This document shows, in pieces, positions 6,861 to 50,173 of a stretch of DNA of 64,000 bases. Numbering within the stretch: position 1 is the stretch's first letter; every line of letters starts with the position of its first letter. Origin of the DNA: Candidatus Omnitrophota bacterium (GTDB lineage: Bacteria; Omnitrophota; Gorgyraeia; VGKN01); contig JAZDNB010000030.1 in NCBI GenBank assembly GCA_043800345.1, positions 91 to 64,090 of the forward strand, in the 5' to 3' direction. The translations under genes and the position numbers were made by a program. The notes below the pieces were generated by a model that saw only the letters and a program-made list of their open reading frames with translations, did not search any database and was not told the DNA's origin.

Positions 6861-6978
6861 GATGAAGCTCCACGGCTTAACAGCCGTGGTTTCTTGCTTT
6901 TTGGTCTCGTGCCATATGGCACAGGCTCATGGAACGGAATCCCGCCCGTCCCGCAAAGCGGGACTGGGTGCGGGATAA
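6861..6978 (+). repeat. 118-bp three-hairpin repeat, copy 1
   Basis: ATGAAGCTCCACGGCTTAACAGCCGTGG...ATCCCGCCCGTCCCGCAAAGCGGGACTGGGTGCGGGATAAA. Lies in the rodZ/rimO intergenic gap and is near-identical to the copies at 26837, 41778, 48242 and 50056. Confidence 0.95.
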
Positions 6979-7006
6979 ATGTGGGAAAGGCTGCCTACGG
7001 TATAAC

Positions 7007-7738
7007 TTATTTTGGAAGTTTCATACCCTCGTGGGTAATGAGGATATTTTTCATCACGCCCCTGCCGGGCGAGCCAAGGTTGTGGCCATTTAAATTTAAC
7101 TCAAGGCTAGCGGCATTGCCAACCCATAACACCATTTCTTCTTTTGCCTGCAAATTTATTGATGAACCAGCCTTTAAGATACTCTGATATACGATCTTCC
7201 CGTCACATTTGATATGCATCCAGGTATCCTGGCTGGCTTTTGCGGTAAGCTGCAATATTTCATTTTTTTTCACCAGAAGAATTGGCTTCTCCGCTTTTTT
7301 AACTGTCACAAAAGGAATTTCTGTTTTTATGGAAGGCTCAGAACTTTTTTTGCTCACAAAAATTTTTGACAGTCCGAACGCTACCAATGAAATCACGACA
7401 ATTCCTGCTACAATAATAGTAACGAGCATAACGGGGGTTTTTTTCGGTATTTCAGAGTCGATTTTTTCATCTTCGGTTTTTATTTCCAATTCCTGAGGAG
7501 GAACTTCAGGATTGAGCACGTTATATTCATTCAGCAAAGGTTCCGGGTCAAGTCCCACATACTGGGCATATTGTTTAATAAAACCCTTCACATAGGTTGG
7601 GTTGGGAAGCCTTTCAAACGCTTCCTCTTCAAGGCTCACCAGGAATTTCATTTGAATCTTTGTGGCACGCTGAAGTTCTTCGAGCGTTATGTTTTTTTCT
7701 TCTCTTGCTTTTTTTAATGTCTGTCCTATTATAGCCAT
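7007..7738 (-). CDS. rodZ: RodZ-like cytoskeleton protein (HTH + TM + DUF4115)
   Basis: N-terminal HTH IGQTLKKAREEKNITLEELQRATKIQMKFLVSLEE, a central TM helix and a C-terminal beta domain. Confidence 0.7.
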   Translation of the reverse strand: MAIIGQTLKKAREEKNITLEELQRATKIQMKFLVSLEEEAFERLPNPTYVKGFIKQYAQYVGLDPEPLLNEYNVLNPEVPPQELEIKTEDEKIDSEIPKKTPVMLVTIIVAGIVVISLVAFGLSKIFVSKKSSEPSIKTEIPFVTVKKAEKPILLVKKNEILQLTAKASQDTWMHIKCDGKIVYQSILKAGSSINLQAKEEMVLWVGNAASLELNLNGHNLGSPGRGVMKNILITHEGMKLPK

Positions 7739-26804: not shown

Positions 26805-26836
26805 AGCGTAGGGATAAGATTCCGACGGATAATTCT

Positions 26837-26954
26837 ATGAAGCTCCACGGCTTAACAGCCGTGGTTTCTTGCTTTTCGGTCTCGTGCCATATGGTACAGG
26901 CTCATGGAGCGGAATCCCGCCCGTCCCGTAAAGCGGGACTGGGTGCGGGATAAA
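26837..26954 (+). repeat. 118-bp three-hairpin repeat, copy 2
   Basis: Full-length copy between orf94 and dinB. Differs from the consensus by C59T and C93T, both in stems and both leaving G-T pairs. Confidence 0.95.
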
Positions 26955-38562: not shown

Positions 38563-38641
38563 TGGTCGGGGCGGACAGACTTGAACTGTCGACCTCAGCG
38601 TCCCGAACGCTGCGCTCTAAGCCAAACTGAGCCACGCCCCG
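38563..38641 (-). tRNA. tRNA-Pro (anticodon CGG), CCA encoded
   Basis: The minus strand reads CGGGGCG-TG-GCTC-AGTTTGGCTTA-GAGC-G-CAGCG-TTCGGGA-CGCTG-AGGTC-GACAG-TTCAAGT-CTGTC-CGCCCCG-A-CCA. This is a complete cloverleaf with the anticodon loop TT-CGG-GA. Confidence 0.9.
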
Positions 38642-41331: not shown

Positions 41332-41550
41332 CTACTTTTCTAAGACAAAATGCCCTATCGCAGCGCCGGTTGCTGCGCCCACAGCACCGCCTATTGCAAC
41401 TCCTGCCTCAGCCTCTCCAGACTGATATCCTATTATTGCACCTGCGCCTGCTCCAACAAGGGTACCTATAGCCGTTGCCTTCTGCGTGGTAGTGCAACCT
41501 GTCATACATAACAGGCTTATCACTACGAGAGCTATTACAACGTATTTCAT
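41332..41550 (-). CDS. Small glycine-zipper lipoprotein (OsmB/YMGG-like)
   Basis: 72 aa with lipobox LCMTGC and GxxxG repeats (GTLVGAGAGAIIG...GVAIGGAVGAATGAAIG). Confidence 0.75.
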   Translation of the reverse strand: MKYVVIALVVISLLCMTGCTTTQKATAIGTLVGAGAGAIIGYQSGEAEAGVAIGGAVGAATGAAIGHFVLEK

Positions 41551-41570
41551 CTTCCCTCGCCGCCTTTCCT

Positions 41571-41606
41571 AAAATGTAAAACCCACCATTTCGAAATGGT
41601 GGGTTT
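41571..41606 (-). terminator. Terminator-like hairpin (expression platform) about 25 nt upstream of the lipoprotein start
   Basis: Minus strand AAACCCACCATTTCGAAATGGTGGGTTT followed by TACATTTT. It shares CCATTTCG/CGAAA with the first aptamer-like hairpin. Confidence 0.55.
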
Positions 41607-41619
41607 TATCCCCTACTTC

Positions 41620-41767
41620 TGCGGTAGCCCAGCCGTCCTTTCCATGAGGACCCGAGGCTTTGCCCCGAATGCAACCTGTATCCCGGCTACGCTTCGGGGT
41701 CCCTAAGCACAATATCTAAAAACTTTTGCTTGTAGGACGTCCCATTCTTTCGAAATGGTTTGCCTTT
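41620..41767 (-). promoter_or_regulatory. Candidate c-di-GMP-I (GEMM-I)-like riboswitch with a 75-nt internal insertion
   Basis: Minus-strand block 1 (41767-41738) is AAAGGCAAACCATTTCGAAAGAATGGGACG. Block 2 (41663-41620) is GCAAAGCCTCGGGTCC-TCATGGAAA-GGACGGCTGGGCTACCGCA. Both resemble, from memory, the two halves of the V. cholerae Vc2 / GEMM-I core. This is a GC-rich island in an AT-rich leader. Confidence 0.45.
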
Positions 41768-41777
41768 ATCGCATCAT

Positions 41778-41945
41778 ATGAAGCTCCACGGCTTAATGGT
41801 TCGACTCCGCTCACCATCCTTCGAACCATCCTGAGCTTGTCGAAGGACAGCCGTGATTTCTAACTTTTCGGTCCGTGCCATATGGCACAGGCTCATGGAG
41901 CGGAATCCCGCCCGTCCCGTAAAGCGGGACTGGGTGCGGGATAAA
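41778..41945 (+). repeat. 118-bp three-hairpin repeat, copy 3 (with a 51-nt nested insertion and a 1-nt deletion)
   Basis: Same termini as the other copies. An insertion at 41797-41847 sits inside the loop of hairpin 1, and consensus T46 is deleted. Confidence 0.9.
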
Positions 41946-42095
41946 CTTTATATCTATTATTAATATAACATGAAATTTTAAAAACTCAAGGGAGGGCAAT
42001 GTTTCTAGGCGTGTGTGTATTACCGCGGAGCTATAGGTAATATGCGGTTTCACATCACCGCTTTGATGTAGTGATGGGGTTTTTACAATAACCTT

Positions 42096-42875
42096 TTAAG
42101 AAGCTATAGATTTTTTATACATATGTTCTACAATCCGCCGCGCCACCAGGTCTATTTGAGTACACATCGGTAACACAGAACTAATAAAAAATATCTGTTC
42201 TGACACATTATGGCGATCTTCAAGCTGAGATATTTTATGCAAAAAATCATCCAGAGGAACAACAGTCTCTAAATAATGTTTAAAGGTATATAATGTTAAA
42301 GAAAATAAATATTCTCCCATGGCATTTTTGCATAAATCGGCCTGCATACTAGCAAGTGTACAATCAATATTCATTTCTGCCTCAGTTGGCAACTCTTGTT
42401 TTAAAACGTGAAAGATTCTACATAGTATAATACCGCTTATCTCTGTCTGTGCTTTGTAAAGAACTTCCCGATATTTATCCTTGCTATGGCTTTTTTGAGC
42501 AAATTCCAGCTCCAGGTGCAAAAGTTTATTTTTTTCTATATCCTCAAATTCAGTATATGACATAAGGCTTATTTTCTCTAATTCTCTTGTGGAAATTACA
42601 CTGTTTGCCTGTTGTTGTTTTTTTGATGGGTCTATGTTCGAATAATATGCTAATAGATAAAGCTCTAAAAAGATACAATAGAAACGTCTGCTAAATTCAA
42701 AAATATATTTATAAGACCTTTGGAATTTCAGCAACGCCTCGTCTTTGAGTTGATATTTTTTTATCATCTTCCCGGAGACATATTTTGCAAGGCTTGCCTT
42801 TTCTAGCATCATTTTCTTAAGCACTTCGGGATCATCTACTATATATTCCATTTTGCGTTCTTGGCTTATATGCAT
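42096..42875 (-). CDS. Hypothetical helical protein (259 aa)
   Basis: ORF only; no recognised motif. Last gene of the rib-linked string. Confidence 0.5.
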   Translation of the reverse strand: MHISQERKMEYIVDDPEVLKKMMLEKASLAKYVSGKMIKKYQLKDEALLKFQRSYKYIFEFSRRFYCIFLELYLLAYYSNIDPSKKQQQANSVISTRELEKISLMSYTEFEDIEKNKLLHLELEFAQKSHSKDKYREVLYKAQTEISGIILCRIFHVLKQELPTEAEMNIDCTLASMQADLCKNAMGEYLFSLTLYTFKHYLETVVPLDDFLHKISQLEDRHNVSEQIFFISSVLPMCTQIDLVARRIVEHMYKKSIAS

Positions 42876-47994: not shown

Positions 47995-48178
47995 AGTCTT
48001 ATCTTCTCCCCTCTAGACTTTACCGCACAGAAGCGGTTCTACAGTAATAGTAGAAACTATTGGCCCTGGAATTTCACCAGCTCTGTTCCGAAGAAATCTC
48101 GCTCACAAAATCTCTTCATTCGGAACTCGCAGGCTTTCACTGCCAGTCGGGAATTTCACCCGATCCCGAAGATTAGAG
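47995..48178 (-). promoter_or_regulatory. FMN riboswitch (RFN element)
   Basis: The minus strand carries CTTCGGGATCGGGTGAAATTCCCGACTGGCAGT, GCTGGTGAAATTCCAGGGCCAATAG and AGTCTAGAGGGGAGAAGATAAG, the hallmark RFN blocks. Located upstream of ribBA. Confidence 0.9.
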
Positions 48179-48241: not shown

Positions 48242-48359
48242 ATGAAGCTCCACGGCTTAACAGCCGTGGTTTTTGACTTTTCGGTCTCGTGCCATATGGC
48301 ACAGGCTCATGGAGCGGAATCCCGCCCGTCCCGCAAAGCGGGACTGGGTGCGGGACAAA
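48242..48359 (+). repeat. 118-bp three-hairpin repeat, copy 4
   Basis: Full-length copy. The linker is variant (TTTTTGAC) and the element ends GGGACAAA instead of GGGATAAA. Confidence 0.95.
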
Positions 48360-48444: not shown

Positions 48445-49599
48445 ATGGAAAATAATCTGGATAGGTCAAAGGCAGGCCTTATTGTGCTCTATGAAATCTC
48501 TTGTGCAATGAGAACCACGCTTAAACTAGAACACATACTTTATATTATACTCACCGGTGTTACATCGCATGAGGGACTTGGGTTTAACAGGGCAATGCTA
48601 TTTCTGGTTAACGAAGACGAAAACTTGCTTGAGGGAAAAATGGGGATTGGCCCTGATACCGGGGAAGATGCAAAAAATATATGGCAGCAGATAGAGGCCG
48701 ATAAAATGACGCTCGAGGACTTGATAACCGCATATGACAGGCTTAAGGCACAAACCGATCCCCAGCTTAATAATCTGGTAAAAAGTATTAAAATACCCTT
48801 GAATGAGAGTTCCGGCATCCTTGCATTAACCGCTCTTGAAGGAATGCCCTTTGAAATAAGCGAGGATATCTCGAAAGAAAAGGTTGACGATGCTACGCTA
48901 AGGATGCTCCAGGTAACCGAATTCGTAACGGTCCCCTTAAAGGCAAAAGACAAGGTAATAGGGGTCATACTTGCCGATAACTTATATACAAAACAACCCA
49001 TCGCCAAGGAAGATGTAAAACTTCTTACTATGTTTGCAAATCAAGCAGGTCTTGCTATAGAAAATTCGCGGCTTTATGAACAGACGGTATTTCTATCAAA
49101 CGTTGACTCTTTAACCGGGCTCTTTAACCACGGGTATTTTCAGACGACTTTAAGTAAAAAACTCAAAGAAGCCGAATCGGAAAATAAACCGCTTTCACTT
49201 ATAATGTGCGATATAGATTTTTTTAAAAATTTTAACGATTCACTCGGTCATCAAAGCGGAGACAAGGTCTTAGCCAGGGTAGCATATCTCATTAAACATT
49301 CACTGCGGGAGACCGACATCGCCACGCGGTACGGAGGAGAAGAATTTGCCGTTATCTTACCCGATACTGACACAGAAGAAGCATATCGCTTAGCTGAGAG
49401 AATAAGAAATACCGTTGAAAAACACAATATTATAAACCCGGATAACCCTTCTATAAAGGCACCTACCATTAGTGCCGGTATCGCCAGTTTCCCGAAGGAT
49501 GCGCGCATGAAAGAAGAACTTATAAAGGCAGCTGATAGTGCGCTCTATAAAGCTAAAGAATTCGGAAGAAACAAAATAATTTGTTTTAGTAGTCAGTGA
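48445..49599 (+). CDS. GAF-domain diguanylate cyclase (GGDEF)
   Basis: 384 aa with an N-terminal GAF-like domain and a C-terminal RYGGEEFAVILPDT active site with DSLTGLFNH. Confidence 0.9.
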   Translation: MENNLDRSKAGLIVLYEISCAMRTTLKLEHILYIILTGVTSHEGLGFNRAMLFLVNEDENLLEGKMGIGPDTGEDAKNIWQQIEADKMTLEDLITAYDRLKAQTDPQLNNLVKSIKIPLNESSGILALTALEGMPFEISEDISKEKVDDATLRMLQVTEFVTVPLKAKDKVIGVILADNLYTKQPIAKEDVKLLTMFANQAGLAIENSRLYEQTVFLSNVDSLTGLFNHGYFQTTLSKKLKEAESENKPLSLIMCDIDFFKNFNDSLGHQSGDKVLARVAYLIKHSLRETDIATRYGGEEFAVILPDTDTEEAYRLAERIRNTVEKHNIINPDNPSIKAPTISAGIASFPKDARMKEELIKAADSALYKAKEFGRNKIICFSSQ

Positions 49600-49616: not shown

Positions 49617-49988
49617 CTATTTTTTCAGGATGTGATCATCCGCGGTACCTTTTTCCCCGTCTAACCCCGCACCAATACTACAGGTAGGATCAGTTCCTAT
49701 GCAATTATAAGTGTAGGTACCGCCAGCCGGACAGACCGGAGTTCCTCCTTTTATATATGCCTCTATCTCCATAATATCATCTGGCAGGGGAATTGCTTTC
49801 GATATATCACTTCCCATTGCCCATTGTTCTTTAGCAAAGGCTATCGAATGTAAATTTTCAACACAGATACGGGCATCTTTAAATACCTTGGCTTTTTTAA
49901 AATGCGGTAGAGAGATAAGCGTCAATGTCCCGAGGATTACCGCAATCATTGCTGCCTCAATATATACAAGAAAATTTTTATTATCCAT
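49617..49988 (-). CDS. Pilin/pseudopilin-like protein with an atypical N-terminus
   Basis: NFLVYIEAAMIAVILGTLTLISLPHFKKAKVFKDARICVENL resembles a type IV pilin N-terminal helix but lacks the canonical G-1 / E+5 arrangement. Confidence 0.5.
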   Translation of the reverse strand: MDNKNFLVYIEAAMIAVILGTLTLISLPHFKKAKVFKDARICVENLHSIAFAKEQWAMGSDISKAIPLPDDIMEIEAYIKGGTPVCPAGGTYTYNCIGTDPTCSIGAGLDGEKGTADDHILKK

Positions 49989-50055
49989 TTAGGGCTCGTA
50001 CTAAATATCCGTGATACCTGATTATCTAAATACCTATGAGCGCTTTATTAAATCT

Positions 50056-50173
50056 ATGAAGCTCCACGGCTTAACAGCCGTGGTTTCTTGCTTTTCGGTC
50101 TCGTGCCATATGGCACAGGCTCATGGAGCGGAATCCCGCTCGTCCCGCAAAGCGGGACTGGGTGCGGGATAAA
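50056..50173 (+). repeat. 118-bp three-hairpin repeat, copy 5
   Basis: Full-length copy between the smc stop and the pilin-like gene start. Carries a single stem change, C85T. Confidence 0.95.

Follow-up and report, generated by a model that had tools for sequence, protein, structure and literature searches.

Riboswitches of the c-di-GMP-I class (GEMM-I, RF01051), which respond to cyclic di-GMP (c-di-GMP), are among the most abundant and best-studied of all riboswitches, and their first hairpin is described as nearly invariant. In about half of the known members, a GNRA tetraloop on this hairpin docks into a receptor in the second hairpin. In the Vc2 aptamer of Vibrio cholerae, A47 is one of the ligand-contacting nucleotides. 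The first hairpin of GEMM RNAs consists of a 2-base-pair (bp) and a 6-bp stem with a highly conserved 3-nucleotide (nt) internal loop between them and a GNRA cap, and the AAA linker is a defining feature of the motif (PMC1950547). G20 and C92 of Vc2 contact the ligand, and C44 forms a long-range Watson-Crick pair with G83 that is required for folding (PMC11705072). Here, we describe a related element in a 64,000-nt stretch of a Candidatus Omnitrophota genome (contig JAZDNB010000030.1, positions 91 to 64,090; hereafter the window), where it lies on the minus strand upstream of a small glycine-zipper lipoprotein gene. It is probably a functional c-di-GMP-I type riboswitch with a lineage-specific, expanded architecture, in which two further hairpins emerge from the first hairpin.

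A preliminary description of the locus, made from the letters alone, had reported two blocks of a GEMM-I-like aptamer, separated by 75 nt, in a GC-rich leader. Its sequence statements proved exact. On the minus strand, we count 75 nt between AUAAAGGCAAACCAUUUCGAAAGAAUGGGACG and CAAAGCCUCGGGUCCUCAUGGAAAGGACGGCUGGGCUACCGCAGAAG (or CAAAGCCUCGGGUCCUCAUGGAAAGGACGGCUGGGCUACCGCAG in a longer reading of the second block); the downstream hairpin, the spacer, the ATG and the glycine-zipper lipoprotein gene are all present as transcribed, and the GC content of the leader is 0.47-0.51 as against 0.31-0.36 in the flanks. A covariance-model scan of the leader matched both halves of the aptamer together, although below threshold. 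With Rfam in E-value mode over 41400-42000 (601 nt), the best match is the c-di-GMP-I-GGC family (RF03167), with 29.5 bits and E=6.4e-5. It covers 41619-41773 and model positions 1-80, and the first hairpin and the insert together fall into a gap of 95 nt, compared with 19 in the model. A two-gap pattern for such a split aptamer gave no match in 100 shuffles of the window.

The whole aptamer, a c-di-GMP-I core plus a two-hairpin insert, comprises 154 nt (41620-41773, minus strand, as for all features of the leader below) and is matched end to end by Rfam in E-value mode. P1 is formed by UGCG (41770-41773) and CGCA (41620-41623). Beyond its 5' strand, GGC (41762-41764) provides the equivalent of G20 at 41764; the remaining two nucleotides are G21 and C22, the partners of C46 and G45 (41662-41663). 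In the first hairpin, the upper stem (CCAUUUC-GAAA-GAAUGG, 41742-41758) is closed by a GAAA tetraloop at 41748-41751 and followed by GAC (41739-41741), the equivalents of G42, A43 and C44, with a C at the last position in every class member aligned (see below). On the far side of the insert, G45, C46 and the AAA linker (the A47-A49 equivalents; 41659-41663, within GCAAAGCC at 41656-41663) join the two canonical hairpins. The second of these, P3, has the strands AGCC-U-CGG-GUCC and GGAC-GG-CUG-GGCU around its loop (41626-41659), and ACC then leads into the 3' strand of P1 (41620-41625). In the Rfam consensus alignment, the ligand-contacting nucleotides G20, A47 and C92 have their equivalents at 41764, 41661 and 41624, and the partners of the inter-helix pair, C44 and G83, correspond to C 41739 and the bulged G 41633. 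All strongly conserved positions of the Rfam consensus are present.

The insert occupies 41664-41738, between C44 and G45 in Vc2 numbering (GGGAC / insert / GCAAAGCC). This site is the 3' side of the first-hairpin internal loop, directly above two base pairs next to the pocket, G21-C46 and C22-G45. According to minimum free energy folds and covariation, it forms two hairpins: PA (GUCCU ... GGGAC, 40 nt, 41699-41738) and PB (CCCGAA ... UUCGGG, 35 nt, 41664-41698), the latter without a linker to either PA or G45. Class-wide, the cleanest reading is GGGRC / PA / PB / GCAAAGC. The stems of the first hairpin, the AAA and GAC loop nucleotides and the GAAA cap are in place, but instead of a compact 3-nt internal loop there is one into which 75 nt intervene. 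Modelled in this way, the loop becomes a four-helix junction without linkers, one base pair from the ligand pocket. The insert had been thought to separate the two halves of the aptamer, a description better replaced by its position within the internal loop of the first hairpin, at C44/G45. The supposed degenerate second copy of the aptamer 5' half is the interior of PA, which shows no sequence conservation among relatives; taken as a whole, the insert is simply two abutting hairpins.

The same arrangement recurs at a syntenic locus. The closest homologue of the lipoprotein (74% identity) is named as coming from a Candidatus Omnitrophica metagenome-assembled genome (MAG), and the contigs share the gene order of the window; at this locus (L001), NusB, PHP, RibD, Lum_binding, a hypothetical protein, Gly-zipper and DUF72 follow the order seen in the window. 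Its leader (L001:3755-4000) contains the same aptamer with a 90-nt two-hairpin insert at the same site. The two cores are identical and the hairpin interiors unrelated, while the differences in paired regions are compensatory, for example a C-G pair at the base of PB that is U-A in L001. The leaders of Gly-zipper paralogues (100 residues; P0003, P0005, P0008 and P0012), whose synteny differs, have no riboswitch, because the intergenic gaps there measure only 0-80 nt; for P0002, the contig holds just 18 nt upstream.

Beyond L001, relatives were sought with a pattern consisting of AAGGCAAACC, GCAAAGC 85-115 nt further on and GGGYTRCC after another 20-45 nt, in one scan each of a genome and a metagenome collection. 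The scans returned 39 and 64 stretches, respectively, compared with about 3.5 expected by chance per collection (a hand estimate). These stretches sort into chance matches in coding DNA, a nested arrangement described further below, and about 25 distinct sequences with the layout of the window. From eight aligned members, with the structure written by hand, we built a covariance model (R1) and searched it over all fetched loci. Expanded members score 43-152 bits with R1 and canonical aptamers about 33-60 bits; the window, one of the eight seed sequences, scores 135 bits and contains a single aptamer match. After sorting and the R1 search, at least 27 distinct sequences share the expanded architecture. 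The 12 members derived from genomes are labelled Omnitrophota (10), PVC group (1) and Planctomycetia (1). R1 also found one member beyond the reach of the pattern, L026:7734-7867, in which GGUAAA...ACAAAG includes a compensatory C22-G45 change and G20, A47 and C92 are kept. The architecture thus recurs both in the syntenic L001 and across the class, with covariation in both insert hairpins.

Covariation extends over the whole structure. In the alignment of 27 sequences, 96% of the cells are paired overall; none of 500 shuffles reached the observed values, and controls in which the structure was slid along the alignment gave 32-53%. Within the insert, each of the five basal pairs of PA and of the six in PB shows changes on both sides (97.8% and 94.6% of cells paired, respectively). 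P3, with 11 pairs, has 97.6% of its cells paired and six pairs that change on both sides. Pairs also covary in the upper stem of the first hairpin (four of six), where GNRA loops are kept throughout, and in P1 (two of three columns), and the C22-G45 pair is replaced by a compensatory U-A in one member. The equivalents of C44 and G83, neither of which was required by the search pattern, are kept in all 27 members. When the inserts were folded alone, all 27 formed two abutting hairpins filling the insert, as did only 88 of 2,700 dinucleotide shuffles (3%), with a mean z-score of -3.9. A sequence motif common to all PA or all PB interiors was not found among the 27 members, and the two hairpins therefore look more like a scaffold than like a second binding site. 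Most likely, PA and PB would form a scaffold at the periphery and so adjust folding or affinity. That this lineage tolerates and conserves two helices on the loop of the first hairpin, right after C44, bears on how the aptamer folds.

Other expansions of GEMM-I were seen on Omnitrophota or metagenome contigs, with extra hairpins inside or ahead of the first-hairpin upper stem (L027:506-682, L097:2044-2228 and L091:1925-2012); in L027, CCAUU and the GCAA loop are separated by two hairpins. The first hairpin appears to have been remodelled at more than one site in Omnitrophota.

A natural pair of orthologues allows the effect of the insert to be read directly and stands in for its removal in silico. 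L026:7734-7867 and L030:1112-1191 are riboswitches with near-identical cores from related Omnitrophota MAGs, at loci with two riboswitches each, of which they are the second. What sets them apart is a clean indel of 47 nt, comprising two hairpins, at the C44/G45 site; their platforms are otherwise alike. RF01051, with a gathering score of 35 bits, assigns 30.9 bits to L026, which has the insert, and 67.1 bits to the insert-free L030. A drop of about 36 bits indicates that the insert alone explains the sub-threshold Rfam scores. At the least, this comparison of sequences shows that the same core is maintained with and without the two-hairpin module. Both forms also occur in one genome: in L030, the canonical aptamer is preceded, at a distance of about 600 nt, by an expanded one. 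The expanded element constitutes a natural test of how far the most conserved hairpin of the class can be remodelled.

At gathering thresholds, the only Rfam calls in the window are a tRNA and a flavin mononucleotide (FMN) riboswitch, and the leader element goes unreported. Relatives in the class score 31-41 bits, with L050, L046, L019 and L013 at 35-41 bits and matched over their full span. As expanded members generally fall at or below threshold, c-di-GMP regulons of Omnitrophota are likely to be under-annotated, which may extend to other candidate phyla.

How the element relates to described systems can be stated feature by feature. It shares with c-di-GMP-I (RF01051, Vc2) the P1 helix, a first hairpin with GGCAAA ... 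GAC-GC and a GNRA loop, the AAA linker, a second hairpin with a bulged G, the ACC motif, the equivalents of G20, A47, C92, C44 and G83, an intrinsic-terminator platform, and gene contexts of pili, secretion and surface proteins. Unlike c-di-GMP-I, the expanded class carries a 47-90-nt two-hairpin insert at C44/G45, and the window copy falls below the gathering score. We conclude that the expanded element descends from c-di-GMP-I. Among the features that define that class, a score above the Rfam threshold and the compact 3-nt internal loop are lacking, whereas the AAA linker, the ligand-contacting and inter-helix nucleotides and the covariation of P1 and the second hairpin are present. It represents a new architectural variant of a known riboswitch. 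The c-di-GMP-I-GGC family has the same overall fold and is the best Rfam model on the window, but its consensus reads GCGAAG, with a G at the A47 position, whereas the window reads GCAAAG and reaches 29.5 bits against a gathering score of 59. The 3'3'-cyclic GMP-AMP (3'3'-cGAMP) riboswitches (GEMM-Ib) likewise have the same fold, with position 20 setting the ligand; an A replaces G20 at this base-contacting pocket position (PMC9481103). Here, the window and all class members have a G at position 20.

Tandem c-di-GMP-I doublets and triplets, such as Bc3-5 of Bacillus thuringiensis, are complete aptamers in series (PMC4759541, PMC9481103). The present leader resembles them in holding more GEMM-I-like sequence than one canonical aptamer; unlike them, the window has a single aptamer, and the extra RNA amounts to two simple hairpins within it. 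The FMN riboswitch of the same window offers another parallel, a conserved core that tolerates variable extra helices. Peripheral expansions of the FMN type lengthen hairpin tips, whereas PA and PB branch from a conserved internal loop beside the pocket. Neither insert-bearing or nested GEMM-I RNAs nor riboswitches of Omnitrophota were described in the literature covered, a coverage that is incomplete and amounts to absence of evidence only.

With regard to the ligand, the pocket nucleotides are those of an ordinary c-di-GMP-I aptamer, since the window has GCAAAG, with an A at position 47, rather than GCGAAG, and AAAGGCAAA has a G at the G20 equivalent, the position altered in cGAMP sensors. 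Assignment to the GGC variant or to the cGAMP class was rejected on the same nucleotides. Because G20, A47, C92, C44 and G83 are kept and the regulon of the class resembles that of GEMM-I, the ligand is most likely still c-di-GMP. The genes downstream of class members encode a type IV pilin (N_methyl motif), a T2SSE ATPase with an MshEN domain, a PAS-GAF-HD_5 (HD-GYP-like) protein, a DPBB_1 protein (lytic transglycosylase family), a glycoside hydrolase, a Gly-zipper lipoprotein and two proteins that resemble Flp pilins by their N-terminal sequence and have no Pfam match. Such contexts are typical of c-di-GMP and GEMM-I targets.

Ligand occupancy would be read out by an intrinsic terminator 21 nt downstream, which would control read-through into the small glycine-zipper lipoprotein gene. 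The corresponding hairpin, AAAACCCACCAUUUCGAAAUGGUGGGUUUU, is 30 nt long (41578-41607, -17.3 kcal/mol) and continues into the tail UACAUUUU, the two together covering 41568-41607; a spacer of 28 nt in all, UACAUUUU included, separates the hairpin from the ATG at 41550. A simple terminator scan of the window missed the hairpin on account of the break in its U-run. In L001, too, the aptamer is followed by a comparable hairpin with a U-rich tail. Terminators follow most class members. Ten of them overlap the aptamer, its 3' strand serving as their 5' arm, and in ten others, as well as by eye in the window and L001, a separate terminator lies 15-52 nt downstream. In several of these separate terminators, the 5' arm copies an aptamer strand; in the window, the terminator copies the 5' strand of the first hairpin. 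At L019:2634-2725, L043:1655-1746, L046 (minus strand, 3' of 7530) and L024:1370-1461, the 5' arm and loop of the terminator closely replicate the aptamer 3' half (for example GAUAGCCGAGCUACCGAAAUAAAAGG and GACGGCCGGGUUACCGAAAUAAAGG), implying an expression platform of the strand-swap type.

The preliminary description had proposed that the first hairpin and the terminator form mutually exclusive structures. The complementarity exists, between CCAUUUCG of the first hairpin and CGAAAUGG of the terminator 3' arm; its action as a switch is hypothetical, and the terminator conformer dominates. A more extensive pairing involves the terminator 3' arm and loop with AAGGCAAACCAUUUCGAAA of the aptamer, 12 contiguous and five more pairs at -20 kcal/mol. 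L001 retains CGAAAUGG even where its own terminator has no need of it, which points to an antiterminator forming while the aptamer is unlocked, and hence to an OFF switch. Without the lock provided by the ligand, the terminator 3' arm would pair instead with the 5' core AAGGCAAACCAUUUCGAAA. On the basis of these modelled pairings, the window copy might tentatively be regarded as an OFF switch. In a nascent-transcript fold, the linker GAAGUAGGGG pairs with the 5' arm of the terminator as a local antiterminator; this option was discarded, since the pairing is weak and not conserved in L001.

Several observations weigh against these interpretations, those on the direction of the switch first. Full-length folds favour the terminator conformer by about 18 kcal/mol, the antiterminator would have to span about 150 nt, and the platform is common to only two close relatives. 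The ten members with overlapping terminators have the classic ON design and are predicted to act accordingly, in opposition to the OFF preference for the window copy. As for the aptamer, the window element is below the gathering score for every family of the clan (35 bits for RF01051), and P1 has only 4 bp. The GAAA loop is present, and the short P3 (4 + 3 + 4 bp with a 9-nt loop) shows no evident 11-nt tetraloop receptor motif. The three core motifs AAGGCAAACC, GCAAAGC and GGGYTRCC were required by the search pattern, and their conservation in 26 of the 27 members is a matter of ascertainment, L026:7734 alone being independent; in part this also applies to the conservation of G20, A47 and C92 in the class. 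Likewise, the paired fractions and covariation come from an alignment fitted to the structure by the covariance model itself, which the alignment-free folds and the independent member offset only partly. Finally, the insert adjoins the pocket, so that an unchanged specificity is an assumption.

This last point opens the way to an alternative, which we consider unlikely, in which the fold is the same and the function is not. The hairpins would reshape the pocket or add a site, giving a different (cyclic or linear) dinucleotide ligand, a second input, or affinity or kinetics shifted from those of canonical aptamers. The position of the insert directly above the G21-C46 and C22-G45 pairs beside the pocket is compatible with this, as is the zero-linker, two-hairpin geometry kept in all 27 members, and the canonical and expanded aptamers about 600 nt apart in L030 argue that the two forms differ in function and against a mere peculiarity of the whole lineage. 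Against it, G20, A47 and C92 are canonical, G20 speaking against 3'3'-cGAMP and A47 against the GGC variant. PA and PB have no universal motif, as one would expect if they held a site for a ligand or protein, the L026/L030 orthologues with and without the insert are otherwise alike in core and platform, and the gene contexts are the classical ones of c-di-GMP. Accordingly small is the chance we give to PA and PB being an active module, with distinct specificity, a much-shifted affinity or a second input by docking of a protein, ion or RNA. If they were, the canonical and expanded aptamers of the same genome would answer different signals or c-di-GMP ranges, and the expanded form would be a functionally distinct riboswitch class, largely hidden by Rfam thresholds.

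It seems quite improbable that the leader is structured and blind to ligand, a relic aptamer retained as an RNA-stability or folding element or as a constitutive attenuator. The short, 4-bp P1 of the window would agree with such a relic, as would the thermodynamic dominance of the terminator, the sub-threshold Rfam score and a repeated element inserted 5 nt upstream of P1. However, the cost of the insert, about 36 bits between the natural orthologues, fully accounts for the low score; paired-region differences between the window and L001 are compensatory while the core is identical, and strong purifying selection acts on the structure across the class. The decayed switch that had been entertained at the outset is contradicted by the same compensatory changes and class-wide covariation. 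Its companion proposal of a split or expanded GEMM-I variant has held up, given the recurrence in L001 and the class, the covarying insert hairpins and the kept contact nucleotides.

Hardly credible is a tandem or rearranged duplicate, in which the insert would be the remnant of a second aptamer or a mobile element (miniature inverted-repeat transposable element, MITE) that landed in the aptamer: a slight resemblance of ACAAGCAAAAG...CUUAGGGAC to the 5' half, a small repeated element in the genome with one copy in this leader, and nested and tandem GEMM-I arrangements elsewhere speak for it, but the look-alike stretch is non-conserved PA interior with an unrelated sequence in L001, the insert has no aptamer features and R1 detects one aptamer only in the window, and insert sequences vary among members around a constant position and a constant, covarying two-hairpin structure. 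The tandem rearrangement suggested earlier falls on the same grounds, the look-alike and the single R1 match. A blastn search of 41774-41965, which holds the repeat, matched other copies in the window and nothing in 41664-41738; the insert is therefore not a copy of the leader repeat. A mobile element inside the aptamer was dismissed on this blank together with the unrelated insert sequences and the constant position and structure.

The aptamer and terminator are embedded in a 545-nt intergenic gap, read on the minus strand, between a gene for a 259-residue hypothetical protein (42096-42875) and the 72-residue lipoprotein gene (41332-41550). A putative promoter, judged by consensus match only, consists of TTGAGT, 16 nt and TATATT, with TG ahead of the -10 box (41962-41989), and the homologous L001 leader has comparable promoter-like boxes upstream (TTGATT, 17 nt, TATACT). 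Downstream of the terminator-like hairpin, a Shine-Dalgarno-like GAGGG (41554-41558) precedes the ATG (41548-41550), the feature as a whole covering 41332-41558. The 72-residue product matches the glycine-zipper families PF13441, PF13488 and PF05433 in Pfam and has a lipoprotein-type signal peptide with the Cys lipobox LLCMTGC, as read from the sequence; an exact-protein look-up returned no record for it. For this genome, the riboswitch would link c-di-GMP signalling to a small glycine-zipper lipoprotein of outer-membrane type. A GGDEF cyclase had been noted about 7 kb away, and the gene is indeed there, 6.7 kb off, at 48445-49599 on the plus strand; it encodes a GAF-GGDEF diguanylate cyclase by Pfam assignment, with a GGEEF motif. 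Adjoining it is an open reading frame of 123 codons (49617-49988, minus strand), the product of which has a pilin-like hydrophobic N-terminus and no Pfam match, with a repeat copy upstream.

The repeat is a GC-rich element of about 125 nt with three hairpins, present in five minus-strand copies (41778-41945, 26836-26954, 50055-50173, 48242-48355 and 6862-6979). The copies are 93-95% identical, all intergenic and sense to the downstream gene, with the consensus TTTATCCCGCACCCAGTCCCGCTTTGCGGGACGGGCGGG...CCACGGCTGTTAAGCCGTGGAGCTTCAT. The leader copy (168 nt) lies outside the aptamer, between it and the promoter-like site, and has an extra 50-nt nested hairpin; the repeat is absent from the syntenic L001 leader. 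No significant family was found in the Rfam E-value scan covering the leader copy. The element could be MITE-like or resemble repetitive extragenic palindromic (REP) sequences, or it could be an unknown RNA motif of 5' untranslated regions.

The nested arrangement recovered by the pattern scans is a double GEMM-I, found at L062:950-1160 and 33 other loci (for example L012, L022, L048 and L060). The sources are MAGs labelled Bipolaricaulota (most), Thermotogae and Neomarinimicrobiota, and metagenome contigs. A complete inner aptamer and a small hairpin sit within the distal loop of the outer second hairpin, and the outer 3' half (GCCUAAUGGUGGCCGAGCCGC-UAGAUGC) follows the inner aptamer in all 34. 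The portions seen of a review of tandem riboswitches do not mention nesting (PMC9481103). Downstream, ACCAUUAGGAGGUG is complementary to CCUAAUGG and the Shine-Dalgarno sequence is apparently sequestered, which suggests translational control.

Two further RNAs are encoded in the window. The FMN riboswitch (47997-48177, minus strand, 79 bits) has unusually long variable regions, of 25 nt and 39 nt compared with 5 in the model; it precedes a riboflavin operon (ribBA, ribH, nusB, ..., ribD, ribE-like), and a copy of the repeat lies directly upstream of it. The tRNA gene is located at 38566-38641 on the minus strand (60 bits), with an equivalent at 7116-7191 of the syntenic L001.

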